NCBI GenBank assembly: GCA_905216195.1 | Contig: CAJMSX010000012.1 | Coordinates: 1,706-65,705, forward strand | DNA: 64,000 nucleotides | From: an uncultured bacterium | Lineage (GTDB): Bacteria > Bacteroidota > Bacteroidia > Bacteroidales > Marinifilaceae | Direction of reading: 5' to 3' | Shown here: positions 43,707-57,190 of the stretch, piece by piece | Layout of the letters: each line of letters starts with the position of its first letter | How positions within the stretch are numbered: the first letter of the stretch is position 1 | The notes under the pieces: model-generated | Told to the model about the DNA's origin: nothing | The model's database searches: none | Seen by the model: the letters and a program-made list of their open reading frames with translations, nothing else | Translations under genes and position numbers: made by a program

Positions 43707-45125
43707 ATGTACGACGTCAAATCGAAAATCGCAGAAGAATTTATTGACGATGCAGAGATTTTATCGACCCTAGAGTATGCCCAGGCCAATAAAAATAATC
43801 GCCAACTGATCGAGAGTCTCATCGAAAGAGCCAGAGACTGCAAAGGGCTGACTCATCGGGAAGCGGCCCTCCTGCTGGAATGTGAGGATCCGGACCTGAT
43901 TGAAAGAATGTTTCAGGTGGCCCGGGAAATCAAGCAGAAATTTTACGGCAACCGTATTGTGATGTTTGCTCCCCTTTATTTGTCCAATTATTGTGTCAAC
44001 GGTTGTGTCTATTGTCCTTATCATGCTAAGAACAAAACCATTGCACGACGTAAGCTGTCCCAGGAAGAAATCCGGCAGGAAGTCATCGCTCTTCAGGATA
44101 TGGGACACAAGCGCCTGGCCATCGAGGTGGGGGAGCATCCTGTACTGAATCCCATAGAATACATTCTGGAAAGCATTGAGACGATCTATTCCATCAAGCA
44201 TAAGAACGGAGCCATCCGCCGGGTCAATGTCAATATTGCGGCCACGACGGTGGAAAATTACCGGAAACTCCACGAAGCTGGTATCGGTACCTATATTCTC
44301 TTTCAGGAAACTTACCATAAAAAAAATTATGAGGCATTGCATCCCAATGGCCCTAAAAGTAATTATGCCTACCATACCGAAGCCATGGATCGGGCGATGG
44401 AAGGCGGGATCGATGATGTCGGAATAGGAGTATTGTATGGTCTGAATACCTATCGGTATGATTTTGTGGGTTTGCTGATGCATGCCGAACATCTCGAAGC
44501 CGTGTTCGGAGTGGGACCGCATACCATCAGTGTACCCCGTCTGTGTAATGCGGACGATATCAGTACCGATGATTTTTCCAATACCGTTCCCGACGATATT
44601 TTCCAGAGAATCGTAGCGGTGATCCGGATCGCCGTTCCTTATACCGGAATGATCGTTTCCACCCGGGAATCCCAGGTTTCCCGGGAAAAGGTTCTGGATA
44701 TCGGAGTATCTCAAATCAGCGGGGGATCGCATACAAGTGTGGGCGGGTATGTAAATAAAGAGGAGTTCGACGAAACTACTTCTCAGTTCGATGTCTCCGA
44801 CCGCCGCACCCTGGATGAGGTTGTAGGCTGGTTGCTGGACCTCGGTTATATTCCCAGTTTCTGCACCGCCTGCTACCGGGAAGGACGTACCGGCGACCGG
44901 TTTATGACCCTGGTCAAATCGGGACAGATTGCCAATTGCTGTCAGCCCAATGCCTTGATGACCTTGAAAGAGTACCTGGAGGACTACGCTTCTCCCCAGA
45001 CCCGGGCAAAGGGGGAACGTATGATTGCAGCCGAAATGCTGCGCGTACCCAGTGAAAAAGTGAGAAGGATCGCCTTGAAAAATCTGGAAGAGATCGCCGG
45101 AGGGAAACGGGATTTTAGATTCTGA
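43707..45125 (+). CDS. hydG: [FeFe]-hydrogenase H-cluster radical SAM maturase HydG
   Basis: 472 aa. Radical SAM CVNGCVYCPY and a C-terminal CTAC-x21-CC auxiliary cluster motif (the CX2CX22C type that separates HydG from ThiH). Confidence 0.8.
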   Translation: MYDVKSKIAEEFIDDAEILSTLEYAQANKNNRQLIESLIERARDCKGLTHREAALLLECEDPDLIERMFQVAREIKQKFYGNRIVMFAPLYLSNYCVNGCVYCPYHAKNKTIARRKLSQEEIRQEVIALQDMGHKRLAIEVGEHPVLNPIEYILESIETIYSIKHKNGAIRRVNVNIAATTVENYRKLHEAGIGTYILFQETYHKKNYEALHPNGPKSNYAYHTEAMDRAMEGGIDDVGIGVLYGLNTYRYDFVGLLMHAEHLEAVFGVGPHTISVPRLCNADDISTDDFSNTVPDDIFQRIVAVIRIAVPYTGMIVSTRESQVSREKVLDIGVSQISGGSHTSVGGYVNKEEFDETTSQFDVSDRRTLDEVVGWLLDLGYIPSFCTACYREGRTGDRFMTLVKSGQIANCCQPNALMTLKEYLEDYASPQTRAKGERMIAAEMLRVPSEKVRRIALKNLEEIAGGKRDFRF

Positions 45126-45819
45126 TACGGTTGTGGAAAATGGTAATATAATAAGGCAACCTGGCCTATAGCTTTACGCCTCACCGGAGAGGCCGGCTTG
45201 CCCGGCCTTCTTCCCGCTTCTATTTTACGTTGAGGAGCATTCCGGCTTGTCTTTGCGGATGGGAGAGAGCCGGTGAGGTTGCTGTATCCCCCGGTTTCGG
45301 GAAGGTAAAATTTCTTTCCTGCCTTTCGGTTTAAGGTCTGTAGGCCGCGAGGGAGTTGCCCGTAAACTTTCTATTTTACTGTCAGGGAAAAGAATAAATT
45401 CCAAAGTGCCCATAGGATACCTGTCTTCCCAATCGAAGGTATATTCTTTCCGGGTCCAGGGATAAAAGTTCGTGATTGGTTGGCGGATGAACCTGGTCCG
45501 GATAGCAGTAGATAAACCGTTTATTTTCTTGTCGGTAGGGTGGTGGGGTAGGATGCTGTTTGTTATGTCGGTACACTAAGCCGGACGGAATAATTGGGCG
45601 GTAGAGACCTTAAAAATGACGATCGTGTCCTGCTGTTATTTCAGGATTTTCCTACTCTTTCCTGAGCTTTTCGGAATCCGCCCCGATGAATCATTCTTTT
45701 ACTACATAAGAAAGAGGGGAAAAACGGCGTGCCGGAGGGAGAAATGCGAAGAACTTTTTGGAAAAGGATGCCGTATACGGAGTAATTTGCATAAAATGTT
45801 AATCCTAAACAGAAACGTT

Positions 45820-46866
45820 ATGAATTACGGTATCAGTGTTTTATTTCGGGCTATTCCGGTGGTTATGGCATTTATTTGCTTTTTCCTGGGAGGCTTTATT
45901 TATTTATACGGGAACGATGCGGCCCGGGAGGTAGCCGGTCCTGTGGTATTTTTCCTGGGAGCCATTTGTCTGGCTTTGTTTGCTACAGCCGGTACGATCA
46001 TCCGGCAATTGATCCATACGTTCCGTCCGGTATTCAAGTATTTGTTGCCCGGCTTCGGTTATCTGGTGGCTTTTTGTACGATCGGACTGGGAATCTGGAT
46101 TTTTTCTCAGGACGTTAGCAACTTTATCGTATCCGGACACGTGGTATGTGGGGTTGGATTGATTGCCGCCTGTGTGTCGACAGCGGCTACTTCTTCTACG
46201 AAATTTTACCTGATTCCTCAAAATTCCCACGGAAACAGTACAGCCATCAATACGGCTGGGTTTTCGGCCGTTACCGAGAAGGTTTTGATCGGATTAACCG
46301 TTTTGTTTTCTCTGGTCGCCTGGATCTGGTGTATTGTTCTGCTTTCCCGAACCGGACAGGGAAGTGCCTATTTCGTTGCCGGTACGGTGATGGGAGGACT
46401 GGCTTCCATCTGTAGCAGCCTGATTGCCTTGGTCGCGAGTATTGCCCGGCAAATCCGGAACGATTATAGAGAAAAGGATCGTCATTTCTGGCCGAAGTGG
46501 GTGTTCTTTTTCGGTTTCCTCTGTATCGTATGGGGGTTGATCGTGATTTTTACCTTGGTGGGACATGCCGCGAATACGACCGGTTTTATCCTGATCGGGC
46601 TGGGGTTGGTTTGTTTCAGTATCTCCAGCAAGGTGCTGTTGCTGGCTAAAGTATGGCGACAGGAATACGCCCTGGCGAACCGTATTCCGTTGATTCCCGT
46701 CATTACCGCTCTGTTGTGCCTGTTTTTGGGCGCTTTTCTGTTCGAGGAAGGCATTCTGGATAATGCATTTTTTGTGCCCGCCCGGGTTTTGATCGGGTTA
46801 GGCGCGATTTGTTTCTGTCTTTTTTCGATCGTCAGTATTCTGGAAAGCGGTACATCGAAAAAATAG
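45820..46866 (+). CDS. polytopic membrane protein of unknown function
   Basis: About 348 aa from the ATG at 45820 (MNYGISVLF), almost entirely TM helices. The upstream 68 codons of the track ORF look non-coding. Confidence 0.55.
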   Translation: MNYGISVLFRAIPVVMAFICFFLGGFIYLYGNDAAREVAGPVVFFLGAICLALFATAGTIIRQLIHTFRPVFKYLLPGFGYLVAFCTIGLGIWIFSQDVSNFIVSGHVVCGVGLIAACVSTAATSSTKFYLIPQNSHGNSTAINTAGFSAVTEKVLIGLTVLFSLVAWIWCIVLLSRTGQGSAYFVAGTVMGGLASICSSLIALVASIARQIRNDYREKDRHFWPKWVFFFGFLCIVWGLIVIFTLVGHAANTTGFILIGLGLVCFSISSKVLLLAKVWRQEYALANRIPLIPVITALLCLFLGAFLFEEGILDNAFFVPARVLIGLGAICFCLFSIVSILESGTSKK

Positions 46867-46909
46867 AAGGACGGAAAATTTATTGTTTGCCTGTAAATCA
46901 GGTATGATA

Positions 46910-46945
46910 CACCGGAGCAGCACTCAGGGAAGGTCTGCTCCGGTG
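46910..46945 (+). terminator. intrinsic terminator
   Basis: caccggagcag-14 nt-ctgctccggtg, a perfect 11-bp stem followed by tagtttatttt. Confidence 0.65.
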
Positions 46946-47341
46946 TAGTTTATTTTGAAATGAAAAAAGTTTTGCTTCAGTAGAATCCCGTTCAATTGGT
47001 CTTTATATCCGGTTTACACTCTGCCGGCAGGAATTTTACCGCACCCAACATACGTGGAGGGAACGGTTTGATCAGTTTAGGGCGATACCGAGCGATGACA
47101 AGTTCGGAAAGAGGAGATGCCGGGGGGTGCAAGCACGGTTGGAAGCCCAGCCTACAAAGGGAGAGGAGGGCAAAGCTCCCCTTGTAATAAATAAAATCGG
47201 TTGTGGCGCCTTTTTAATGAGTAGGGAGGTTTTAAATTAGGGCAGTGTAATGGATGTGTAGATTAAAAAAGAGTGCTTAATAGTAAGATTTTAGCCTATT
47301 TTTATAAATAAAATCACATTAAAAAATGAAATAATGTATTA

Positions 47342-47349
47342 TAAATTTG
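47342..47349 (+). promoter_or_regulatory. candidate Bacteroidota -7 promoter box (TAAATTTG) upstream of the RiPP precursor
   Basis: Exact match to TAnnTTTG, 88 nt upstream of the ATG at 47437. No well-spaced -33 TTTG is visible. Confidence 0.3.
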
Positions 47350-47436
47350 TTTTTATTGAAAATTCTGCTTATTTTGTCGAAGTAATATAGCCGTAACAGC
47401 TTCTGGCTGATCTAAGACAACAAAAAATTTACTCGT

Positions 47437-47622
47437 ATGGAAAAAAAACTTTCAGACCTGATGCCTCATGCAGCATTAGACATCAGTGAGCTCTCAAACA
47501 TTAAAGGTGGTATGGAGAATCCCACAGAAATCAAACGAGTTTGCGATACCGGAGCGTGTAGCTCTAATCTCGACACTCTTGTACAGTATTGTACCGAATC
47601 CATTTGCAGAACCGGTGCTTAA
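47437..47622 (+). CDS. RiPP precursor peptide with double-glycine leader (Bacteroidetes GG-type) and four-Cys core
   Basis: 61 aa. Leader MEKKLSDLMPHAALDISELSNIKGG. Core contains CDTGAC and CTESIC. Lies 60 nt upstream of a radical SAM/SPASM gene. Confidence 0.7.
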   Translation: MEKKLSDLMPHAALDISELSNIKGGMENPTEIKRVCDTGACSSNLDTLVQYCTESICRTGA

Positions 47623-47682
47623 CCTTAAAGGACGCTTGCCACAAGTTGGAAAGGTTTGTGGCAAGCGTAGAAAAAGATAATT

Positions 47683-49149
47683 ATGCAGATTTGCTTTAAT
47701 CCTAATTATTATCTAAAGCATGATGGAGAACGGACCATTCTTGCGACAAATCCTTATGCTCAAGATCCTGACGTTAAGAAAGGATGGTTATCTAAAATAC
47801 ATCCTCTCTACGCAATGATGTTTTCAATTTTGTCTCAACCGAGTGAATTAGAAATAGCTATTCGAAAAATTGCTGATTTTTTCTCGGTTTCGATAAATGA
47901 AGCAGAACGTTTGCTCACCCCTTTCCTTTATGAGGAAGGAATTTTAGAAGCAAAATACCAAGATACTATCAGTTATTTTCCTCCACACATTGTATTGAAG
48001 GATATAGGAATAACGCATGGAGGTCTAGATTATAATCCTGCCCACTTTATATTTTCCAAAGTTGATCTTACAAGCCAACGAATGAAATTGGCTCCTCAGG
48101 GGATTGTTCTAATTATCAATAATCGCTGTGTGACTGATTGTATTTATTGTTATGCAGATAAAAAACAGAAGTGTAAAACGTCTTTCAGTTTAGCGACAAT
48201 TGAATCCCTGTTGGAAAACGCAAAAAGACTTGGGATTCGAGAATTACAGGTTATAGGCGGAGAGTTTTTTCTTTACCCTGATTGGGAAAGATTATTGGAA
48301 CTACTCGAAAAATATGAATTTTACCAATCTTTAATTTCTACAAAAGTACCACTAAGCAAAGCGCAAATAAACTATTTTAACCGATTTAACATAAGTTTAC
48401 AAATATCATTTGATGGTTTTGATAGTAATTTGGTTCAAAAAACATTAGGCGTTTCAGATGTTTATTTTGAGCGCATGAAAAGAACTATAAAGAATATAGA
48501 TTGTGCTTCTGTAAACTTTCAAGTAGCTACAGTGCTCACGAATCTAACAGCTACTATTGATAATTTAAACAATCTTCATTGTTTTTTGAAGGAGTTAAAG
48601 AATTTAAAACGTTGGGAAATTCGATTTGCTTTTCGATCGCTATATTCCGTTTCTAATTTTGATGAAATAAAGGTTTCGCCGGATTTTACAGAAATGCTTT
48701 CTCATTGGTATGAAGAAATTAGAAAATCCTCATCCGTGAATATTCTTCTTTCTCCGGCTAATGATATAAAATATTATTCAGCCCAAAATGGTTCTATTAG
48801 TTTTGAAGGGCCTCGCTGTTCTGCGAATACCACTCATATGGTTATTTTGCCCGATGGAAAAGTGACAATTTGTGAGCAACTTTATTGGAATCCGAGATTT
48901 ATTATTGGAGACATCTATAAGAATACAATAGAGGAAATATGGACGGGAAGAAGGGCACTTGAATTGGCATCTTGGCAACAATCAAAAGTTCAAAAGAATA
49001 GTCCATGTTCTTCTTGTGAATTGTTTGAGACCTGTTTAAATTATCCCAATAAATGTTTTGCAAACACTATCAAAGCTTATGGTGACGCTAATTGGGATTA
49101 TCCTGATCCTCGTTGCTCAAGGGCTCTTCCGTTCATCCATTCACTTTGA
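47683..49149 (+). CDS. radical SAM/SPASM-domain peptide maturase with N-terminal PqqD/RRE-like domain
   Basis: 488 aa. CVTDCIYC (CX3CX2C, nt 48127-48150) and a C-terminal SPASM-like region GPRCSAN..DGKVTIC..CSSCELFETCLNYPNKC. The N-terminal ~95 aa resemble a leader-recognition element. Confidence 0.8.
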   Translation: MQICFNPNYYLKHDGERTILATNPYAQDPDVKKGWLSKIHPLYAMMFSILSQPSELEIAIRKIADFFSVSINEAERLLTPFLYEEGILEAKYQDTISYFPPHIVLKDIGITHGGLDYNPAHFIFSKVDLTSQRMKLAPQGIVLIINNRCVTDCIYCYADKKQKCKTSFSLATIESLLENAKRLGIRELQVIGGEFFLYPDWERLLELLEKYEFYQSLISTKVPLSKAQINYFNRFNISLQISFDGFDSNLVQKTLGVSDVYFERMKRTIKNIDCASVNFQVATVLTNLTATIDNLNNLHCFLKELKNLKRWEIRFAFRSLYSVSNFDEIKVSPDFTEMLSHWYEEIRKSSSVNILLSPANDIKYYSAQNGSISFEGPRCSANTTHMVILPDGKVTICEQLYWNPRFIIGDIYKNTIEEIWTGRRALELASWQQSKVQKNSPCSSCELFETCLNYPNKCFANTIKAYGDANWDYPDPRCSRALPFIHSL

Positions 49150-49154
49150 TCGTT

Positions 49155-51497
49155 ATGAAGAAGGTTTTTTTATTTTTTGGTACATTTCTGTTTGCTTATA
49201 CTTCCCTGTTTGCATTTTCCACCAAAAGACTAACAGGAGTTGTGTTGGATAGTCTGTCAAAATCTCCAATTGAATTTGCCAATGTTTTAATTTTTAGTCA
49301 AGACTCTCTCTATATCGATGGATGCACGACTACTAAGAGCGGTTCTTTCGTTTTTGAGGATATTCCGAGATCCGGCGGATACCTCAAAGTATCCTTTATT
49401 GGATATGTCGATGCCATATATAGTCTGGACAGTTTAAGTACGGAGAAAAACAATATTCTCTATCTTCGCCCTTCGGATATATTCCTGGAAGAAATTACGG
49501 TATCGGCGAATAGGAAACCATTCCAGATCGAAGATGAGCGAATACTATTCAACCCCTCTTTTGTCGCTTATGCCGTAAATGCAAGCGATTTAATCAGGCA
49601 AGCCCCCGGTGTGATGGATACCGGTACATCGCTTGTTATGCCAGGGAAAAATGCGATTAAAATTTATATAAACAACAAGGAACAGAAAGGTTCACTGGAA
49701 GACATTCTGCTTCTTCTTAAATCTTATCCTGCGTCAGAGGTGGAGTCTATTGAAGTGATGATTAATCCATCCACACGATACACTATGGGCCAAAATGTCG
49801 GTGTGATCCATGTTAAACTGAAGAAAAAGCCAACGGATTATTTAGGCGGTAACGCCTCTTATTCTTTACTTCAAAACACTCAGCCGAGTAATGAAGGATC
49901 CTTAGGACTTTTTTATCAGGGGAAACGTTTTTCAACATCTTTAAACACTGCCGGTAATCTGAAGAAGTACGATCTTGAGGAACACCAGAGAGTTGGTTTT
50001 ACAGATTATACCCGAAATGCACTCACAGATATGACCCGCCATGCGAAGGACTTGGTGCTTCGATGGAATGTGAGTTATCAATTCAACGAGAATTGGAATG
50101 CGGGTTTGTCAGCTTACTACGCAACGGGAAAAATGAAACAGCGAACGGATCAACACTATTGTTATTATTTCCCTTCAGCAACAGAAGAACGAGAGCTTAT
50201 TACAGGCAAACGAACAGACCAAGCAAATACTTCTTTCGCCTCTTTTGACTTGGAAGGCAAATTATCCAAGACTACAAACTTGACGATTAATGTTGATTAT
50301 TACCATAAACATTCTCCTACTGAACGTAGTCTTTACGCTGTCCCTCTTGAGGAGCGGTTGATTTATTCTTTAGATGATATTACAAGCGATAATGTGACGG
50401 CTAAAGTCAATCTAAATCTTGTCTCAACTTCTAAACTCACTCTGAATTTTGGTGTAGACGGTATTTTTACCAATACCAGGAATTCTGAAACAGGCGTTTA
50501 TAGTGACGGACTTAGTGGTGAGGACGATTTCGAGTATCAGGAGAATGAAATAAATATTTATGGCGAAGCTCGTTATAAATTCAATTCAAAATGGATGTTA
50601 AGAGGAAGTCTGCGTTATCAGTCCATATGGACTGAAGCAGAAAATAAACTTGCTTCTGAAAATACGGATCATCATTATCAGGTATTTTGTCCTGCGGCTT
50701 TTCTTTCCTATCTGTTGAAAGAAAATCAGTCTCTTCAACTTGGCTTTTATTACAATATCAATAAGCCAACCCTTACTGCTCTTAATCCATCGAGGTTGTA
50801 TATCGGCAACGATACTTACCGTGTAGGTAATCCTGAATTGGAACACTCTACCCATTACGTTGTCAGCCTTAGCTATTCCTTAGGAAGCCTGATGATACAA
50901 CCTTATATAGAGTGGCTTGACAACGGGATTACTGAAATCTCCAGGATTGAAGATAATAAATATCAAGTGATGACTTGGGAAAATGCTGTGGATCGTCGTA
51001 ATCTGGGATTAATGATTTTTTGGGCCTATTCCAAACCTAAATGGATGCGGGCTTCACTTACGGCATTCTTAACTAATCCTGTGACCACTTCAGATCATCC
51101 GCTTTTACATGCAAGAGTGAGTTCTTTTAAGTTCTCTCTAAGTCCGAATTTACAATTCTATTTGGAGAATGACCGTAAATGGATTCTCGCTGTGTATGGA
51201 AATTATACCAGTCGGGAACATACGGTTGATCTGAAACTGGAATCCATGTGGCGACTGAATGCCAGTTTAACATGGAAGGCAAGCAAACAATGGACCTTGT
51301 CTGCAAGCGGCTTGAATTTATTACGCTCTCATACTCGGGGAATTCAGTATATCGGAGAATCTACCATGAAATTTAATAATAAATATATGTATACCGGATT
51401 TCAATTCTCAGCCAGTTTCACCTGGGGTAAATCTATGCGGCAATCCCGAGACAGAGCCGTCCTTCGGAATATGAACATGCGTACCGAACTCGATTGA
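49155..51497 (+). CDS. outer-membrane beta-barrel protein (CarboxypepD_reg-like N-domain plus TonB-receptor-like/OMP_b-brl_3 barrel)
   Basis: About 780 aa from the ATG at 49155 (MKKVFLFFGTFLFAYTSLFA signal). The domain TGVVLDSLSKSPIEFANVLIF..GSFVFEDIP is followed by a long stretch of alternating beta-strand pattern. The start is 5 nt after the rSAM stop. Confidence 0.7.
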   Translation: MKKVFLFFGTFLFAYTSLFAFSTKRLTGVVLDSLSKSPIEFANVLIFSQDSLYIDGCTTTKSGSFVFEDIPRSGGYLKVSFIGYVDAIYSLDSLSTEKNNILYLRPSDIFLEEITVSANRKPFQIEDERILFNPSFVAYAVNASDLIRQAPGVMDTGTSLVMPGKNAIKIYINNKEQKGSLEDILLLLKSYPASEVESIEVMINPSTRYTMGQNVGVIHVKLKKKPTDYLGGNASYSLLQNTQPSNEGSLGLFYQGKRFSTSLNTAGNLKKYDLEEHQRVGFTDYTRNALTDMTRHAKDLVLRWNVSYQFNENWNAGLSAYYATGKMKQRTDQHYCYYFPSATEERELITGKRTDQANTSFASFDLEGKLSKTTNLTINVDYYHKHSPTERSLYAVPLEERLIYSLDDITSDNVTAKVNLNLVSTSKLTLNFGVDGIFTNTRNSETGVYSDGLSGEDDFEYQENEINIYGEARYKFNSKWMLRGSLRYQSIWTEAENKLASENTDHHYQVFCPAAFLSYLLKENQSLQLGFYYNINKPTLTALNPSRLYIGNDTYRVGNPELEHSTHYVVSLSYSLGSLMIQPYIEWLDNGITEISRIEDNKYQVMTWENAVDRRNLGLMIFWAYSKPKWMRASLTAFLTNPVTTSDHPLLHARVSSFKFSLSPNLQFYLENDRKWILAVYGNYTSREHTVDLKLESMWRLNASLTWKASKQWTLSASGLNLLRSHTRGIQYIGESTMKFNNKYMYTGFQFSASFTWGKSMRQSRDRAVLRNMNMRTELD

Positions 51498-51665
51498 TTT
51501 ACCTGAAAATGGAACGGATGGCTTTTAGTTGTTTGAACAACAAGCTATAGGTCTCAAAAAGACATATCTAAATGGCCCCTTTACCCCCTCTCTTGGCAGC
51601 TTAATTAATTTGCATAGGTGTATTAATTTTAAAGGTAAAAATAGCATATTTTTAGGGAGCCTTTG

Positions 51666-51673
51666 TATATTTG
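51666..51673 (+). promoter_or_regulatory. candidate -7 promoter box (TATATTTG)
   Basis: Exact TAnnTTTG match, 45 nt upstream of the lipoprotein ATG at 51718. Confidence 0.3.
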
Positions 51674-51717
51674 TTTGCAGAAAACCGATTCACTATAGAA
51701 TCCTAAATCGAAGCTGT

Positions 51718-52449
51718 ATGCAAACAAAAAATTTATTCGGAATACTCCTGTTACTCCTTTGCTGTGTGGGTTTGATCAGCTGTGATAAGGAGCACGACGA
51801 CGGGTCGCGGGGATTTATGCAGGAAGCCACAATTATAGGTGATTCGATAAATGGTTACTATTGTTATTTAGACGGCGGCGGATTGGCTATTTCTCATGAC
51901 CCCTGGCTAGAGGGCATAGAAAGAGGATATTTCGCTTTCCATTATATGGAAGAAAATAAGGGCGTGAATGCTAATCAGGAATGGTATATTCAGCCTGCAC
52001 ACGTCTTGCCTTATTCCATATATCCGGTGGTTCACCCGATCAACATAGCAGAAGCAGAATCTAAACACCTTACGGACAAAGATAGTTGTCAAATCCCTTC
52101 ACTTTTTTCATTGGAATACGGCTACCGCGGTTATTTTGACTTCAATACAGGGTTATCCGTTACCAACTTAGCCCATGGAGAAAAAGTCCCTATCCAACTG
52201 AATATGGTATATGATGCGGAGAAACAGACTTCCGATACTTTGCTGTTGCAGCTTTGTTACCATGCGCACGTCCCGGAAACATGGACCCACCCGAGTGTTG
52301 ATTACGGCAGAGTGTCCTGCGATATTTCTTCCCTGGCTACCCTTCGGTCGTGGAGCGATTCGGTGACTATTGTGATAGAGACAGGGGACAAAATGAAACA
52401 TCTGACAAAAATCAGTAAAACGGATTTTTTTAAGCCTGTCAGAGAATAG
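51718..52449 (+). CDS. lipoprotein of unknown function (possibly NigD-like)
   Basis: 243 aa from the ATG at 51718. Lipobox LLCCVGLISC followed by DKEHDD. The segment EATIIGDSINGYYCYLDGGGLAISHD recalls NigD-like lipoproteins, but this family call is weak. Confidence 0.55.
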   Translation: MQTKNLFGILLLLLCCVGLISCDKEHDDGSRGFMQEATIIGDSINGYYCYLDGGGLAISHDPWLEGIERGYFAFHYMEENKGVNANQEWYIQPAHVLPYSIYPVVHPINIAEAESKHLTDKDSCQIPSLFSLEYGYRGYFDFNTGLSVTNLAHGEKVPIQLNMVYDAEKQTSDTLLLQLCYHAHVPETWTHPSVDYGRVSCDISSLATLRSWSDSVTIVIETGDKMKHLTKISKTDFFKPVRE

Positions 52450-52638
52450 AATTTTTCCGTAACCTGAAATCGGGGACTTGCCCGCAAAGACCTTTTTGCA
52501 GCTTACCAGAAATCAAAATCTGCTCGCCGAGATTTGGAAAATTTAAAGGAGGGAGGAAGTAGAGCTGATGATAAGCCGGTTTTCCTGTGTGTTTATACTT
52601 CACGGATTACGTAAAAGAGCGGGAAAACTATAACTTCA

Positions 52639-52647
52639 CCCCCCCCC
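52639..52647. repeat. homopolymeric C9 tract
   Basis: Nine consecutive C read directly from the sequence, in the intergenic region after the lipoprotein gene. Confidence 0.95.
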
Positions 52648-53082
52648 ATTCTCTGTCTGCCCGGTAGATTTCTAAAGGGGGCAGTTAAGGTTTCCGGTCA
52701 GGCCTGATACGCTGTTCAAATAAATTGACTTTGCATTCGGTTGGCACTATCTTTGACGAGGATAAGAAATTTTGACATATCTGTCTGAATGACAGCGTAG
52801 AATAGTGAGAAAGAAAGTTGTTAGTAACGATTTAGCGACAATGTAACTACGTTGAATTGCTGCACTTTGCAACTCGTCAAACAACTCTATGCAAATATAC
52901 ATCAAAAATCGAATATGGCAAAACTCCTGTATATTATAATCCATTTCTTTCTTCTTTCCCAAAAAAAAGTATAGCCGTATCGACGCTTCCCGCTTCACAG
53001 AATCGGACTTTATTTGGTGATAGATTCCAATAATCGAATATTCTCCTTTGTAGGGCACGGAAGCAGTATATCTTTGGTAATG

Positions 53083-53113
53083 TTTGACTTTTAACGGTAT
53101 ATAGTTAACTTTG
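53083..53113 (+). promoter_or_regulatory. candidate Bacteroidota promoter (TTTG-N19-TAACTTTG)
   Basis: TTTG at 53083-53086, a 19-nt spacer, then TAACTTTG at 53106-53113. This matches the TTTG/TAnnTTTG consensus spacing, directly upstream of the 53130/53178 ORF. Confidence 0.45.
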
Positions 53114-53177
53114 TAGAAAATATAGTATTGTGTCTAAAGATTTAGGATTATGTGATTCAGCAGTAAATGGCAACAAA

Positions 53178-54029
53178 ATGGAAGAAAAAGTTAACATATT
53201 GATATCCAATTTACAGCAACTGATTAAACAGTTGAATCAATTAGGACTAACTAAATTATCTGATTCTATTTCTCTCGCTTGTAATTGTCTCAAATCACAC
53301 GATTTAATCGGGTTAGATATCATATTAGTCTCTTTTAGTAATAGCAATATACAAAGAGAGATAAATAATTGCAAAATTTATAATATGGTAGTGCGTGCAA
53401 TAGAACTTACAAAAGACATCCAAGAAGATTTTAATAACGATATTACACCATTAACCAAAGCAGAGGAATTATTTCTTCATATTAGCTATAATAAGTTTTT
53501 TGATATTAGTGAAGAAATTTATTCACCAGAATTTTGGAGGCAATCTCCCCAATACAGATTTAGTAAAATCTCGCAAGCATTCAGTATTTATGGAGAGATT
53601 TTAACCTATGAACCGATTCAGGGTGTTCTAAATTGGATGTCTAAATATCGTCCTCCTATGGAATCTGAGATTTCAGGCCCGTTGTTTAAATTTATTCGTA
53701 ATATACTTGCTCACTTTCCATTTTATGATTCGTGGGATGATATATGGATAAGTAGAGATTTAGTTAATTGGAGGACTCAGGGGCAAAGCATAGATAAGTT
53801 TCTAAAAAAATACTCTGGATTACCTGCGATAAAATATCGTTTCAAAGAAAATACAAAGCCAAGTTTCACTTTTATAACAATATCTTTCCCTGAAAAATAT
53901 GATTCAGAAAAAATATACTTGAAAGACATAATAAAGGAAGAAGAAGGTGTGAAATTTGCACTTGTTATGATGCGTAAAGTCCTTAATACACAAATAGAAT
54001 CTATGACAGAAACAACAACGACACATTAG
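53178..54029 (+). CDS. hypothetical protein with R-x4-H (HEPN-like) motif
   Basis: 283 aa from the ATG at 53178 (299 aa from the GTG at 53130). Predicted mostly helical. Contains FKFIRNILAHFPF, i.e. R-N-x-x-A-H (codons 53697-53714). Very AT-rich. Confidence 0.5.
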   Translation: MEEKVNILISNLQQLIKQLNQLGLTKLSDSISLACNCLKSHDLIGLDIILVSFSNSNIQREINNCKIYNMVVRAIELTKDIQEDFNNDITPLTKAEELFLHISYNKFFDISEEIYSPEFWRQSPQYRFSKISQAFSIYGEILTYEPIQGVLNWMSKYRPPMESEISGPLFKFIRNILAHFPFYDSWDDIWISRDLVNWRTQGQSIDKFLKKYSGLPAIKYRFKENTKPSFTFITISFPEKYDSEKIYLKDIIKEEEGVKFALVMMRKVLNTQIESMTETTTTH

Positions 54030-54052
54030 CATACCTATATACCAAGCCTAAA

Positions 54053-54088
54053 AAGAATAACCACTCAATTCATTGGGTGGTTATTCTT
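54053..54088 (+). terminator. terminator-like hairpin after the HEPN-like gene
   Basis: aagaataaccac ... gtggttattctt, a 12-bp inverted repeat 24 nt after the stop. No clear T-run. Confidence 0.45.
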
Positions 54089-54286
54089 GATATAAAAGTT
54101 AGTATCGACTTAAAATTGGTATAGGGGCAAAGCCTACGGGATCTTCTTAGGTTTTATAATTGGGAGACTTTATTGTACTAACTTAAAACACTATAATTTT
54201 AATTGTGAATAATCGGTTGCGAAAAAGTCGTTCATACCTTCTTACATTCGTAATTAAACGGTACACCGAAATACAGTTGAAATCGG

Positions 54287-54334
54287 TAAATCAGTAAGAC
54301 AATAAATCAGCAAATCAATAAGTCAGTAAGTCAA
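54287..54334. repeat. cluster of degenerate octamer direct repeats (T/C)AA(A/G)TCA(G/A)
   Basis: TAAATCAG (54287), TAAATCAG (54303), CAAATCAA (54311), TAAGTCAG (54319) and TAAGTCAA (54327), followed by the palindrome GCATCGATGC at 54344-54353. Confidence 0.8.
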
Positions 54335-54824
54335 TACGACAGAGCATCGATGCTGCATTGACTACTTGTACCGTTGGAGACTTATAGCAGTGTGGGATTA
54401 CTCTGTTAAATCCACAATGCATCATTCCACTGTCTCTCCAGTTTCATATTGCATCGTTTATTACAGAATAGAAGACGTTTTTTATCGCTTATCCGCAGGC
54501 GATGGTTTGCTGTATTCGGGTAGCGATGGGATGTTCGGCCTTAAAAATAGCCGCGACACTTGCACCATGACAGGGCGCAACACTCGGCTAACTGAAAAGT
54601 GGTCGGTTTTCCGCTATCCATCTTCGGACGGATTTTTATGTTCGACGGAACATAGCAAGGTGTGTATCGAGTAACTCGATACCTTTCGGGTTACTCCCGA
54701 AAGCCTTGCCCTGACGGGGGACAAATCGCGCCTCCGAAGTCGGGCGATTTAGAAGAAATGAAAGGGGGTTAATTGTAAAATCCTTATCGAACCGGGCAGT
54801 TTTCAGCTTTTCACGTCCGATCTT

Positions 54825-55958
54825 TCACTCGAAGACCTTGAGCAACGCCCGTTTGTCCTCCTCCTTTTTGACACGCAGGTAGTTGCGGTAGTTTCCGAAT
54901 CCGGCCATCAACACCAGCTCCATGTTGCTTTTGTCGCTGTACCGGGGCGCAAGACGCAGACGGTCGAGTTCCTGCAAGCGGCAGCGGTTTATCAGGCGGC
55001 TGAAATTCATGCTGTATTCGCGGTTGATAAAGGCCGAGAGGTAATTGCGGTTGGTGTTCAGCCCGGCGGCGAGGTCGGTGATGCGGAGTCGGGGATTGAT
55101 ATAGGGCTTCTTCTCGCACAGGTAACGCTCGAACTGCTTGCGGTCGAGGGCGGAGTCCTTCTGCGTCGTATCTTCCTCTTTCCCGTCGGCGGGTTCGGGC
55201 TGGATGATCAGGTAATTGCCGTCGAGCATGTTGTAGCATAAAATAATGTATAAGACGGAATAGGGCAAAGCCCCCAACCAGACGAACCACAAGGAGGAGA
55301 AGGTGTCGATGCCCAGCAAGATGCCGGCAAGGGGGACGGGGATGCAGACAAAGATCAAAAGCTGGATGCCGAAAAGCCAGTCGAGCGAAGTGCGCTGAGC
55401 CTCGGAAGAGTAATCTACGACGAAACGCCTGTATCGACGGATGTTGCGCAGGCTGAGCAGCGGATAAAGCGTATTGTAGACGATGAAGATGATACTCGTG
55501 AGTATATAGACAATGCCGAACCACGCATCGGAGGTAAGGCTGGCGCTCTCGTAAACCACGGCCATCTGTTTCTCAGCGGGAACAAAGAGGTCGCATCCGG
55601 CTGAAAATGCTGTGATAGCTAACGGGATAGCAACATGCAGGCGGTTGAGCCTGCGTGACCCGCTGGTGTCCGTCAGCAGGGCTACAAAGTGATAGAACAT
55701 CACCTGGTCGAGCATCAGGGCCAGCAGAAAGACCGTGTGGTAATGGACAAATCCATCGGGGCTTACCGCATAGAGTACCATCCCGAACCACCCCAGCGCG
55801 GTAACCAGATAGATGACGGCCAGATACAACCTGAGCCGCCTCTCCTGCACATTCCGTTGGCAGGTGCGGGCGTCCATGAGCATCATAAGCATACAGCCTA
55901 CGGCGCATACGACGGGTGTGGAGAACGCGAACGCTTCCACTTGTTCATGCGCGATCAT
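54825..55958 (-). CDS. membrane-anchored AraC-type HTH transcriptional regulator
   Basis: 377 aa. An N-terminal multi-TM domain of about 240 aa and a C-terminal HTH region ITDLAAGLNTNRNYLSAFINREYSMNFSRLINRCRLQEL...MAGFGNYRNY. Confidence 0.7.
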   Translation of the reverse strand: MIAHEQVEAFAFSTPVVCAVGCMLMMLMDARTCQRNVQERRLRLYLAVIYLVTALGWFGMVLYAVSPDGFVHYHTVFLLALMLDQVMFYHFVALLTDTSGSRRLNRLHVAIPLAITAFSAGCDLFVPAEKQMAVVYESASLTSDAWFGIVYILTSIIFIVYNTLYPLLSLRNIRRYRRFVVDYSSEAQRTSLDWLFGIQLLIFVCIPVPLAGILLGIDTFSSLWFVWLGALPYSVLYIILCYNMLDGNYLIIQPEPADGKEEDTTQKDSALDRKQFERYLCEKKPYINPRLRITDLAAGLNTNRNYLSAFINREYSMNFSRLINRCRLQELDRLRLAPRYSDKSNMELVLMAGFGNYRNYLRVKKEEDKRALLKVFE

Positions 55959-57190
55959 GGTGTACCTCCTTTCTTCCTGCCGGATTCTTTTTCCTCCGCC
56001 TCTGCTGCCGCTTCCCGTTCGGCGGCGATAGCCCTCAAATAGGTGCGGTAATTGTCGAATCCCGCCTTTTCGACCAGCGAACGCATGCTTTTACCGCGAT
56101 TGGAGGGCAGCGCACGCAGGCGGTCGAGTTCGCGGAGCCGCCAGCGGTTCAGATAGCGGTTGAAATTCATGCCGTAGGTGCGGTTGATAAAACTCGACAG
56201 CGCGGTGCGGTTCACATCGAACACCTCGACCAGATCGGCGATTTTGCACGCCGGATCGAGCCACGGCTTTTCATGGCGGAAATAAGCCTCCAAACGAACG
56301 CGGCTCAATTTGCCGCTGTGATGCCTGCGCAGGGGTTTGGATTCCGGGCTATCGGTGGCTTCCGGTTGCATTTGCGGTGCAGCCGCTATTATTGGAACCG
56401 CACCTTGCCGGGCGTCGTTGTCGGGCAAGACATACAGCCGATACTTGCGGCGGATGATGTGGTACGAGAGCAAGACGTGCTGAAAGGCCATCGCCCCGGC
56501 AGCGAGGATCGTCCAAAACGAATGCAGGATCGTTGCGCGGGGCATAAACGTAGGCAACAGCGACGAGAGCAGCGAGGCGATGGAGATACCCACCAGAAAC
56601 ACCACCCACCGGGCGGTTTGCCGTCCGGGGGCTTGTTTCCCGTTTGTGCGGTGATAGTAACGTACCAGCAAGGCAATCGTCAGTATATAATAGGCCATTC
56701 CGAAAATCATGCGCAAAAGAGGCTTGAGGGTAAAGAAACGCGCGAACGCTTCGTACCCTGCGGGAAAGACCTGCGCCTTGCCCTCGACGATCCCGATCTG
56801 CACATCCATCGGCACGAACAGCGACCAGACGAACAGCACCCCCGCAAGCAGTCCCGGCAATAGGTAGTGCTGCGGCGAAAACCGTTCCGCCTCTCCCAGA
56901 CGGGTAAGGTAGCGGACGATGCGGTAGAAAAAGATCGAGGGCAGCACGTAAGAGAGCAGGCACAGCACGTTGAGCCATGTAAAGAGCACCGGATGAAATT
57001 CGTAGCAGAATGTCATATACCAGCCCAAAGCGGAGAGCGCAAGATAGACCAGCATGATCTTTTTCAGGCGGCGTTCCTCCTGCGAGAGGCAGTCGCGCAG
57101 GGAGAGGGCCACCAACGCCGAGCAGGTGATGGCCGAAAAAACAGGGATAAGAACTGTAATACCGACTTTATAGGCTGCTAAAATATCCAT
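55955..57190 (-). CDS. membrane-anchored AraC-type HTH transcriptional regulator, paralog
   Basis: 411 aa with the same architecture (IADLVEVFDVNRTALSSFINRTYGMNFNRYLNRWRLREL...KAGFDNYRTY). Its stop overlaps the downstream start as ATGA (55955-55958). Confidence 0.7.
   Translation of the reverse strand: MDILAAYKVGITVLIPVFSAITCSALVALSLRDCLSQEERRLKKIMLVYLALSALGWYMTFCYEFHPVLFTWLNVLCLLSYVLPSIFFYRIVRYLTRLGEAERFSPQHYLLPGLLAGVLFVWSLFVPMDVQIGIVEGKAQVFPAGYEAFARFFTLKPLLRMIFGMAYYILTIALLVRYYHRTNGKQAPGRQTARWVVFLVGISIASLLSSLLPTFMPRATILHSFWTILAAGAMAFQHVLLSYHIIRRKYRLYVLPDNDARQGAVPIIAAAPQMQPEATDSPESKPLRRHHSGKLSRVRLEAYFRHEKPWLDPACKIADLVEVFDVNRTALSSFINRTYGMNFNRYLNRWRLRELDRLRALPSNRGKSMRSLVEKAGFDNYRTYLRAIAAEREAAAEAEEKESGRKKGGTP

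Follow-up and report, generated by a model that had tools for sequence, protein, structure and literature searches.

A putative four-cysteine RiPP precursor, a radical SAM/SPASM maturase and a TonB-dependent-transporter-like protein form a compact locus in an uncultured member of the Marinifilaceae

Bacteria of the class Bacteroidia dominate the gut, and no peptide modified by a radical S-adenosylmethionine (rSAM) enzyme has been chemically or functionally characterised from them, such systems being covered by in silico surveys only (PMC4573289; PMC10352776). The so-called GG-Bacteroidales rSAM system, which comprises TIGR04149/PF14406, TIGR04148 and TIGR04150 (definitions in PMC4573289), likewise exists as an in silico catalogue only (PMC4573289; PMC8939145). 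In the order Bacteroidales, experimental characterisation of peptide toxins of a comparable kind is limited to the bacteroidetocins (class IIf; PMC6671954; PMC8546649). Their locus encodes a protein with five transmembrane segments (5-TM protein), the peptide, a thiol oxidoreductase and a C39-peptidase ABC transporter (PCAT), and disulfides are the sole change made to the peptide; since Bacteroides is reported to be without a general disulfide-forming machinery, these loci need the thiol oxidoreductase (PMC6671954). Here, we analysed a stretch of 64,000 nucleotides of contig CAJMSX010000012.1 from an uncultured bacterium of the Marinifilaceae (hereafter the window), in which a 61-aa open reading frame (ORF) is followed by genes for an rSAM/SPASM enzyme and for a protein resembling TonB-dependent transporters (TBDT). 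The locus is an uncharacterised variant of a known system type and a sound genome-mining lead; unexpected are the lack of an exporter and the importer-like character of the outer-membrane partner. With a probability of roughly 70%, the features of the sequence point to the 61-aa ORF being the precursor ("A") gene of a ribosomally synthesised peptide with post-translational modifications (RiPP), the Cys-rich core of which would be modified by the adjoining rSAM/SPASM enzyme.

A preliminary description of the DNA had proposed a 25-aa leader ending in a double glycine (GG), a 36-aa core and a Cys spacing of 4-10-4 for the 61-aa ORF, and it agrees with the sequence on every point. Residues 24 and 25 are GG, and the four Cys at positions 36, 41, 52 and 57 form the motifs CDTGAC and CTESIC separated by 10 residues. 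The position directly before an rSAM/SPASM gene was also confirmed, the latter by matches to PF04055 and PF13186, and the distance from the precursor stop codon to the maturase ATG is exactly 60 nt (47623-47682). The ORF is a genuine gene that is under purifying selection and linked to the enzyme. A word-indexed search of 5.8 billion proteins returned six relatives with 59-98% identity, those counted as conserved orthologues lying at 59-75%; all six show the same leader pattern and the near-invariant core RVCDTGACSSNL..L..YC..SICRTGA, and an exhaustive HMMER search with a profile of the clade gave 17 matches in 1.84 billion representatives; the precursor clade is rare among called proteins, though short ORFs are under-called. 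In codon comparisons with the orthologues in the related loci L003, L008 and L094, dN amounted to 0.17-0.37 versus a saturated dS of at least 1.9, with dN of 0.17-0.22 and dS of approximately 1.9 for L003 and L094; dN/dS for orthologues is approximately 0.1, which is the mark of strong purifying selection on the precursor. Furthermore, the ORF was predicted by independent gene callers on three contigs of the same species, and the identical peptide is encoded on five contigs.

Additional evidence came from profile hidden Markov models (HMMs), for which only precursors with a partner rSAM enzyme less than 48% identical to that of the window were used, so that the clade of the window was excluded. 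The leader HMM was made from 65 leaders adjoining homologous rSAM genes and the core HMM from 29 cores with partner enzymes of 39-48% identity, and both were searched against every ORF of 30 aa or more in the window, 541 in total. The precursor ORF was the sole match to both models, reaching 31.0 bits (E 6.1e-9) with the leader HMM and 20.6 bits (E 8.5e-6) with the core HMM, compared to 2.1 and 8.9 bits for the respective runner-up ORFs. It must be mentioned that the leader training set was picked by a regular expression demanding the GG motif; nonetheless, the alignment covers all 25 leader residues. A regular-expression search for a second precursor in the window gave one other match, an antisense ORF within a GH92 gene, which leaves the 61-aa ORF as the single intergenic GG-leader, Cys-containing ORF of the window.

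One refutation named in the preliminary description would be the joint absence of a leader-family HMM match and of syntenic precursors beside homologous rSAM genes; this does not apply, since such precursors are abundant. In 78 of the 86 fetched loci in which 250 nt or more precede a homologous rSAM gene (enzyme identity 33-73%), a GG-leader, Cys-containing mini-ORF is situated 11-820 nt upstream on the same strand, which amounts to 69 unique peptides. The view that a GG-leader, four-Cys precursor serves the adjoining rSAM/SPASM enzyme is thus strongly supported by synteny and conservation. Orthologous operons with the order precursor, rSAM, TBDT-like protein and PCAT were found at 65-73% rSAM identity, and the type of precursor follows the rSAM clade among the fetched loci. 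Loci with an enzyme at least 39% identical to that of the window encode four-Cys cores with the spacing [4, 8-11, 4-6], while remoter enzyme clades are accompanied by CGLGC[FY] cores, tandem arrays of "Cys-every-fifth" peptides or long C-x6-C repeats. Cys is the one core residue conserved throughout the family, and C-x4-C is the commonest spacing (130 of 248 gaps). The consensus of 32 four-Cys cores reads [GA]-C1-x-[ST]-[GN]-[AVI]-C2-S-x(7-10)-C3-x(2-4)-A-[VI]-C4-[TR]-[ST]-G-[AIV], and within the clade of the window peptide there is no variation at R34, C36, D37, T38, A40, C41, S42, S43, L48, C52, C57, R58, T59, G60 and A61. Hence, the earlier suggestion of two equivalent C-x4-C sites was not borne out, because the repeated conserved unit is C-x-[ST]-G-[AVI] after Cys1 and Cys4, represented in the window peptide by CDTGA and CRTGA.

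The family shows further variation. Arrays of two to four paralogous precursors stand before distant maturases of approximately 33% identity in L062 (1615-2549), L063 (639-1827) and L075 (291-871); these peptides have 9-11 Cys each in strict C-x4-C periodicity, and a KGA/KGS cleavage motif replaces GG. The leader part of the precursor profile also matches five to eight repeated stretches in each of the large proteins P0151, P0155 and P0156 (1647-3913 aa). Recurrent deletion variants were observed among proteins (P0005, P0152) and loci (L081, 5107-5568; L083, 92-466), some of which are fusions of the maturase C-terminal tail (...NWDYPDPRC...) with the leader or core of a precursor, while others carry a stray C-terminal maturase remnant upstream of an intact copy. 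L069 contains two paralogous maturases and two precursors. In L026 (4198-7032), the maturase gene is broken after residue 147 by an insertion of approximately 1.4 kb, which contains a transposase-like ORF of 408 aa on the opposite strand.

The leader was compared with curated precursor models as well. It had been described as TIGR04149-like, and this likeness holds for the family, since 17 of 40 family precursors matched TIGR04149 at E<=10 (best 3.9e-6), whereas membership does not hold, the window peptide being unmatched by TIGR04149, PF14406 and TIGR01847 even at E<=10. The precursor of L007 reached 18.6 bits with TIGR04149, below the cut-off of 25 bits. The motif L-x-x-I-x-G-G is present in the window leader; TIGR01847 is silent on this peptide and gives 13.1-15.8 bits for orthologues (cut-off 15.7). 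At lenient thresholds, 13 of the 40 family members weakly matched PF10439 (Bacteriocin_IIc). NF038108 (CefA, cut-off 30 bits) did not match the window precursor, but was found at E<=10 for four of the 40 family members, among them an 87-aa peptide of L063 with 15.2 bits. In agreement with the preliminary description, the core corresponds to no characterised peptide: it matches no curated model, and literature searches yielded no description of it or of any characterised member of the precursor family, Bacteroidales rSAM clusters appearing there only in generic in silico surveys.

The maturase encoded after the precursor is a typical rSAM/SPASM RiPP maturase with a RiPP recognition element (RRE), belonging to an uncurated clade. 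Its matches to PF04055 (51 bits) and PF13186 (45.6 bits) both exceed the cut-off, and an RRE-like domain occupies approximately residues 1-135. In an alignment of 43 homologues, the cluster motif C149-x3-C153-x2-C156 is invariant, as are seven Cys of the SPASM domain (C379-x12-G-x4-C397, C442-x2-C445-x5-C451-x6-C458 and C478), and the window enzyme retains all 49 invariant residues. With seven Cys, the SPASM domain could hold an auxiliary cluster that has an open Fe site, as is the case in CteB, although the pattern is not diagnostic. In the AlphaFold 2 (AF2) model (pLDDT 92.4), residues 2-82 form three beta strands and then three helices, which is the RRE pattern. A full-length Foldseek comparison with the PDB placed SuiB first (E 1.6e-17, TM-score 0.70 normalised to the target), with further matches to SkfB (6e-15), PqqE, TigE, CteB (7e-12) and anSME; SuiB, the thioether former SkfB and CteB are RiPP maturases that carry an RRE; by sequence, the best PDB match is SkfB. 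The identity to the solved enzymes is 13-17%. Among NCBIfam models, PqqE scored highest with 55.4 bits, the generic SPASM model TIGR04085 was the sole one above its cut-off, and those for PapB and AlbA were matched weakly. No NCBIfam equivalog came near its cut-off for the maturase or for 10 diverse rSAM enzymes of the family; the best equivalogs for these 11 proteins were PqqE and MftC, with 55-73 bits compared to cut-offs of 265-381. PADLOC reported just generic viperin-like matches to the rSAM core among the cluster proteins. Relatives of the maturase are numerous, with 907 sequences at E<=1e-10 in a protein collection clustered at 90%, which are mostly full length, 40-50% identical and derived from Bacteroidia, for example Prevotellaceae, Muribaculaceae and Candidatus Symbiothrix. 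A profile-based scan of metagenomes recovered at least 545 maturase loci and was far richer than a scan of genome contigs with the single maturase sequence, which gave two. The coordinates of the features discussed here are collected in Table 1.

Table 1. Features of the locus in the window (positions count from the first nucleotide of the 64,000-nucleotide stretch).
Feature	Position	Strand	Basis or remark
Putative precursor ORF, 61 aa	47437-47622	+	ATG 47437, TAA 47620-47622; MEKKLSDLMPHAALDISELSNIKGG + MENPTEIKRVCDTGACSSNLDTLVQYCTESICRTGA
Leader region, 25 aa, MEKKLSDLMPHAALDISELSNIKGG	47437..47511	+	double-glycine cleavage motif at end; leader HMM
Core region, 36 aa, MENPTEIKRVCDTGACSSNLDTLVQYCTESICRTGA, plus stop codon	47512..47622	+	Cys spacing 4-10-4; C-x-T-G-A twice; core HMM
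Radical SAM/SPASM peptide maturase, 488 aa	47683..49149	+	Pfam, NCBIfam, 43-sequence alignment, AF2 model
TBDT-like outer-membrane protein, 780 aa	49155..51497	+	Pfam, same-species gene calls, AF2 model; 5 nt after maturase stop
Lipoprotein, 243 aa, weakly NigD-like	51718-52449		in PCAT position; conserved in no relative
Candidate Bacteroidetes -7 box TAAATTTG (consensus TAnnTTTG)	47342..47349	+	88-95 nt upstream of precursor ATG; weak
16-bp perfect stem-loop	47632..47668	+	between precursor and maturase; dG -24.7 kcal/mol, z -4.4

Regarding transcription, the box TAAATTTG, previously described as a promoter element, is indeed present, but its frequency is not above chance (five occurrences in the window compared to 6.0 expected), and no TTTG was found at the canonical -33 spacing to it. 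Hence, the box alone is no evidence for a promoter, although a promoter at this place is plausible from the sequence; TAnnTTTG was found within 200 nt upstream in three of 10 relatives. In the case of the stem-loop between the precursor and maturase genes, none of 200 shuffled sequences folded as well. It is not followed by a T-run, and equally strong hairpins of different sequence also occur after the precursor stop in L003, L008 (26 bp), L094, L007 and L026. Its probable role is partial termination or stabilisation of the transcript, by which a high ratio of precursor to enzyme would be set; a hairpin between precursor and enzyme genes is a classic arrangement for overproduction of RiPP precursors. 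L003, L094 and L026 additionally show a hairpin in the 5' untranslated region, situated approximately 20-38 nt upstream of the precursor ATG with TAA behind it, in which compensatory changes were observed (CCCGA...TCGGG versus CATGA...TCATG). In the window, the small hairpin is a different one (CAGC-TTCTG-GCTG), situated approximately 30 nt upstream of the ATG. No RNA family was found with Rfam on 46800-47750.

Two points go beyond the preliminary description, namely that a C39-peptidase ABC exporter is lacking and that the third gene encodes a TBDT-like protein. The latter begins with a signal peptide, followed by a CarboxypepD_reg domain, the TonB-box-like segment LEEITVSA, a plug and finally a beta-barrel, and it matches PF14905 (154.6 bits), PF00593 (69 bits) and PF13715, while PF07715 (Plug) was not reported in the Pfam scan. 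LEEITVSA corresponds to residues 111-118 and lies inside a disordered segment (110-118) of the AF2 model, which has a pLDDT of 78.6; by analogy with the SusC-type consensus, we infer that it may act as the TonB box. The fold matches of the model are plugged 22-strand transporters, i.e. Cir, PfeA, FepA, PhuR, OprC, FhuA and BtuB, with E-values from 6e-20 to 1e-16 for Cir, PfeA, FepA, OprC and FhuA. A TolC-like exit duct or a porin was also considered for the third gene and rejected, because the protein is folded like a plugged TonB-dependent transporter. Among loci with an enzyme at least 39% identical to that of the window, a homologue of the TBDT-like gene directly follows the maturase gene in at least 23 of 39 (a lower bound from tblastn), compared to one of 27 remoter loci. 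Genes related to TonB-dependent receptors have been noted before in Bacteroidetes SPASM and graspetide loci, for which Makarova and colleagues guessed a role in export (PMC8939145).

In every close relative, by which we mean L003, L091-L093 and L095 with maturase identities of 65-73%, the TBDT-like gene is followed by a gene for a PCAT of 729 aa and a small membrane ORF, and a PCAT occurs in 49 of the 64 loci of at least 7 kb. In place of both, the window carries the lipoprotein gene of Table 1 at this position, and the same was found on the same-species contigs. Regarding the small ORFs, those of L007 (11269-11448), L091 and L095 are 53-66 aa long, stand directly after the PCAT gene and resemble the transmembrane segment at the N-terminus of HlyD-type membrane-fusion proteins; judged from its sequence, such a protein could serve as a mini-adaptor or in immunity.

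From these features, the following mechanism can be proposed. The leader, with its pattern L-S-D-L...L-D-x-x-E-L-x-x-I-K-G-G, would dock on the N-terminal RRE-like domain of the maturase, a step that we regard as very probable. Using a 5'-deoxyadenosyl radical, the maturase would then take hydrogen from the core, giving rise to intramolecular links that involve Cys; that the Cys are the modified residues is probable. The likeliest product would be a thioether of the sactionine or ranthionine type, in which Cys thiols are linked to carbons of nearby residues, and the conserved Ser/Thr at Cys1+2 and Cys4+2 would be the best acceptor candidates. For this type of link we see an even chance. It is favoured because no core residue other than Cys is conserved universally, because Ser/Thr occur at fixed offsets from Cys, because the nearest structures include SkfB and CteB and because the locus contains no thiol oxidoreductase gene, neither this nor a 5-TM protein gene being found with Pfam and NCBIfam. 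The missing thiol oxidoreductase together with the reported lack of disulfide machinery in Bacteroides also makes plain disulfides unlikely. The hairpin after the precursor gene would hold the precursor transcript above the enzyme transcript. In the relatives, the cluster-encoded PCAT would cleave after GG and export the peptide, whereas the window genome would need a PCAT acting in trans, and the co-transcribed TBDT-like protein would act on the peptide at the outer membrane in import, export or protection. An antibacterial role of the product is conceivable at somewhat less than even odds.

Several observations weigh against the proposal that the 61-aa ORF is a RiPP precursor modified by its neighbouring enzyme. 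Neither a PCAT nor a remnant of it was found in the 64-kb window, where one weak ABC ATPase match (1176-1730) was obtained, and none was found on three same-species contigs; given this absence, maturation may remain incomplete in the window system. In its best matches, the enzyme is no closer to thioether formers than to C-C cross-linkers, with SuiB at the top by fold and PqqE and MftC at the top of the NCBIfam models, and the cross-link chemistry derives wholly from sequence and models. The precursor matched no family in NCBIfam and Pfam scans at E<=1 and E<=10. Moreover, the importer fold of the outer-membrane partner suits a simple secreted bacteriocin poorly; the characterised proteins of the plugged fold are importers. 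Finally, related loci are often decayed, as seen from the insertion sequence (IS) in the rSAM gene of L026 and the deletion fusions of precursors to rSAM tails.

These points have to be seen in relation to the other possible explanations. A chance ORF in AT-rich intergenic DNA could be assumed from the shortness of the reading frame, which matches no curated family, but this assumption is effectively refuted by comparative data, that is by the dN/dS ratio, the orthologues, the synteny and the HMM tests. It is also very improbable that we deal with an unmodified or disulfide-only class II bacteriocin, similar to bacteroidetocins, with the rSAM gene as an incidental neighbour. Bacteroidetocins are indeed four-Cys GG-leader peptides of Bacteroidales exported by a PCAT (PMC6671954), and the weak PF10439 matches point in this direction; however, the linkage to the rSAM gene extends over 78 of 86 loci at 33-73% enzyme identity, the precursor type co-varies with the enzyme clade, the locus lacks genes for a thiol oxidoreductase and a 5-TM protein, and the enzyme has an RRE-like domain for leader binding. 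More weight has to be given to the possibility that the locus is a non-functional or orphaned remnant, the peptide of which is not made, or is made but neither cleaved nor released. We consider this quite unlikely. It would explain why the lipoprotein gene stands in the window and on three same-species contigs where all close relatives have the PCAT, and the location of the cluster in a low-GC island as well as the frequent decay of relatives by IS insertion and deletion fusions are in line with it. But all three genes are intact and of full length, the enzyme has kept its 49 invariant residues, the identical precursor was found on five contigs, and the gene for a PCAT could lie at another place in the genome, as is the case with TolC for colicin V.

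The most serious alternative retains the peptide as true substrate and changes the chemistry, which could be a C-C or C-O cross-link, an epimerisation or a new Cys-Cys or Cys-derived linkage, with each conserved C-x-[ST]-G or C-x4-C unit representing one modification module. The best structural match, SuiB, is a Lys-Trp C-C cross-linker, and in NCBIfam the enzyme comes closest to PqqE and MftC without being assigned to an equivalog. Furthermore, the Cys pairs found throughout the family (C-x4-C, CGLGC, Cys-every-fifth) are unlike the hairpins of sactipeptides, in which N-terminal Cys are paired with distant acceptors, and some members keep little else than two conserved Cys (CGLGC[FY]). Hence, the higher rank of SuiB, PqqE and MftC together with this unusual Cys-pair grammar leaves real room for other chemistry, although we rate it as rather unlikely, since Cys is the sole universal core residue with Ser/Thr at fixed offsets and, to our knowledge, thioethers are formed in nearly all characterised Cys-rich substrates of SPASM/twitch enzymes (AlbA, SkfB, CteB, PapB, NxxcB). 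A more far-reaching version, which is unlikely as well, would be a new Bacteroidia RiPP class that combines an undescribed Cys cross-link per C-x-[ST]-G or C-x4-C module with a dedicated TonB-dependent transporter of the same operon recognising the product. If true, the peptide would not be an ordinary secreted bacteriocin, but would be retaken by the producer as a metallophore or signal, or be guarded against by a receptor-like immunity barrel.

Regarding the genomic setting, the locus lies in a low-GC island (approximately 47000-54500) with 34-42% GC, decreasing to 31% at 53000-54000, compared to approximately 50-57% in the flanks, which suggests horizontal acquisition. No convincing flanking repeats were found around 46500-55000, and no direct repeats bound the island. 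The same-species contig L089 diverges downstream of the lipoprotein gene. The most AT-rich stretch contains a 299-aa ORF (53130-54029) that has no match in Pfam, NCBIfam or PADLOC, and two good matches to the Bacteroidetes-type promoter (TTTG...TAnnTTTG) are situated upstream of it at 53047-53113. Two adjoining paralogues of 377 and 411 aa are encoded on the minus strand at 54825-57190, in high-GC DNA beside DUF3575 and fimbrillin-like genes; both are multi-pass membrane proteins with a C-terminal AraC-type HTH_18 domain. Directly upstream of the island (43707-46866), a gene for the [FeFe]-hydrogenase maturase HydG (922 bits with TIGR03955) and a gene for a DUF2776 membrane protein were found; the 90% cluster of the HydG protein takes in Culturomica massiliensis, from which a Culturomica-like host can be deduced.

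The locus belongs to a large and coherent family, with at least 545 metagenomic loci, 907 protein clusters of maturase relatives and a clear precursor grammar, in which a maturase clade without curated model is combined with a conserved TBDT-like operon partner. One solved member would give the chemistry for hundreds of loci from the gut and the termite gut, and would tell weapons, signals and metal carriers apart. The window copy is compact (approximately 4 kb with three genes) and easy to express, while the exporter-bearing four-gene loci L003 or L095 would be the safer first target.

Finally, the locus can be placed among the known systems. It shares with the GG-Bacteroidales rSAM system the occurrence in Bacteroidia, the GG leader of approximately 25 aa, the Cys-containing core, the adjoining rSAM/SPASM gene and, often, a PCAT. 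It differs in that the window peptide matches neither TIGR04149 nor PF14406 and in that a TBDT-like gene is conserved instead. TIGR04148 was absent from the best 25 NCBIfam matches of the maturase and was found at E<=1e-12 for none of 10 diverse family rSAM enzymes, with the limit that the presence of this model in the library is unconfirmed. A TIGR04150 pseudo-rSAM partner is missing from the cluster, where the neighbours are the TBDT-like protein and the lipoprotein, and the maturase itself scores 33.5 bits with TIGR04150 compared to a cut-off of 250 bits. Since all three components fail, the locus appears, from these comparisons, to be a sister system of the TIGR04148/04149/04150 set and not a member of it. 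The window peptide is no bacteroidetocin either. Those peptides (PMC6671954; PMC8546649) likewise come from Bacteroidales, are comparable in size and have a GG leader, four Cys and PCAT export, but they have no rSAM modification, their Cys are oxidised by the thiol oxidoreductase of the cluster, and they show no sequence similarity to the window peptide. With the Cys-every-fifth peptides of CefA type (NF038108), of which the window peptide is not a member, the C-x4-C periodicity alone is in common. Methanobactin-type operons encode the peptide MbnA, the modifying enzymes MbnBC and the TonB-dependent transporter MbnT. They resemble the window in being operons for a modified peptide with a dedicated TonB-dependent outer-membrane transporter, whereas the enzymes are unrelated to MbnBC, and the present locus is without a periplasmic binding protein, an inner-membrane importer and evidence for metal regulation.

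In the streptide system (SuiA/SuiB), the enzyme SuiB is the best full-length structural match of the maturase, the N-terminal RRE included, but it forms a Lys-Trp C-C bond in a Cys-free core, whereas neither Lys nor Trp is conserved in the cores of the present family. With ranthipeptides, SCIFF peptides and sactipeptides, i.e. CteA/CteB, PapA/PapB (freyrasin), SkfA/SkfB and subtilosin/AlbA, the locus shares the RRE, the rSAM core, the SPASM/twitch domain and the Cys-rich peptide cores. In both cases, thioethers from Cys sulfur to carbon are expected, for which the Cys-rich core and the fold similarity to SkfB and CteB give indirect support here. The differences are the Gram-negative host, the GG leader cut by a PCAT, the TBDT-like gene in the operon and NCBIfam scores far below the cut-offs; moreover, neither the C-x-[ST]-G-[AVI] module of the core nor its C-x4-C periodicity has been described. 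Taken together, the system of the window would in its working be closest to ranthipeptide or sactipeptide systems, set in the Gram-negative context of GG leaders and PCAT exporters.

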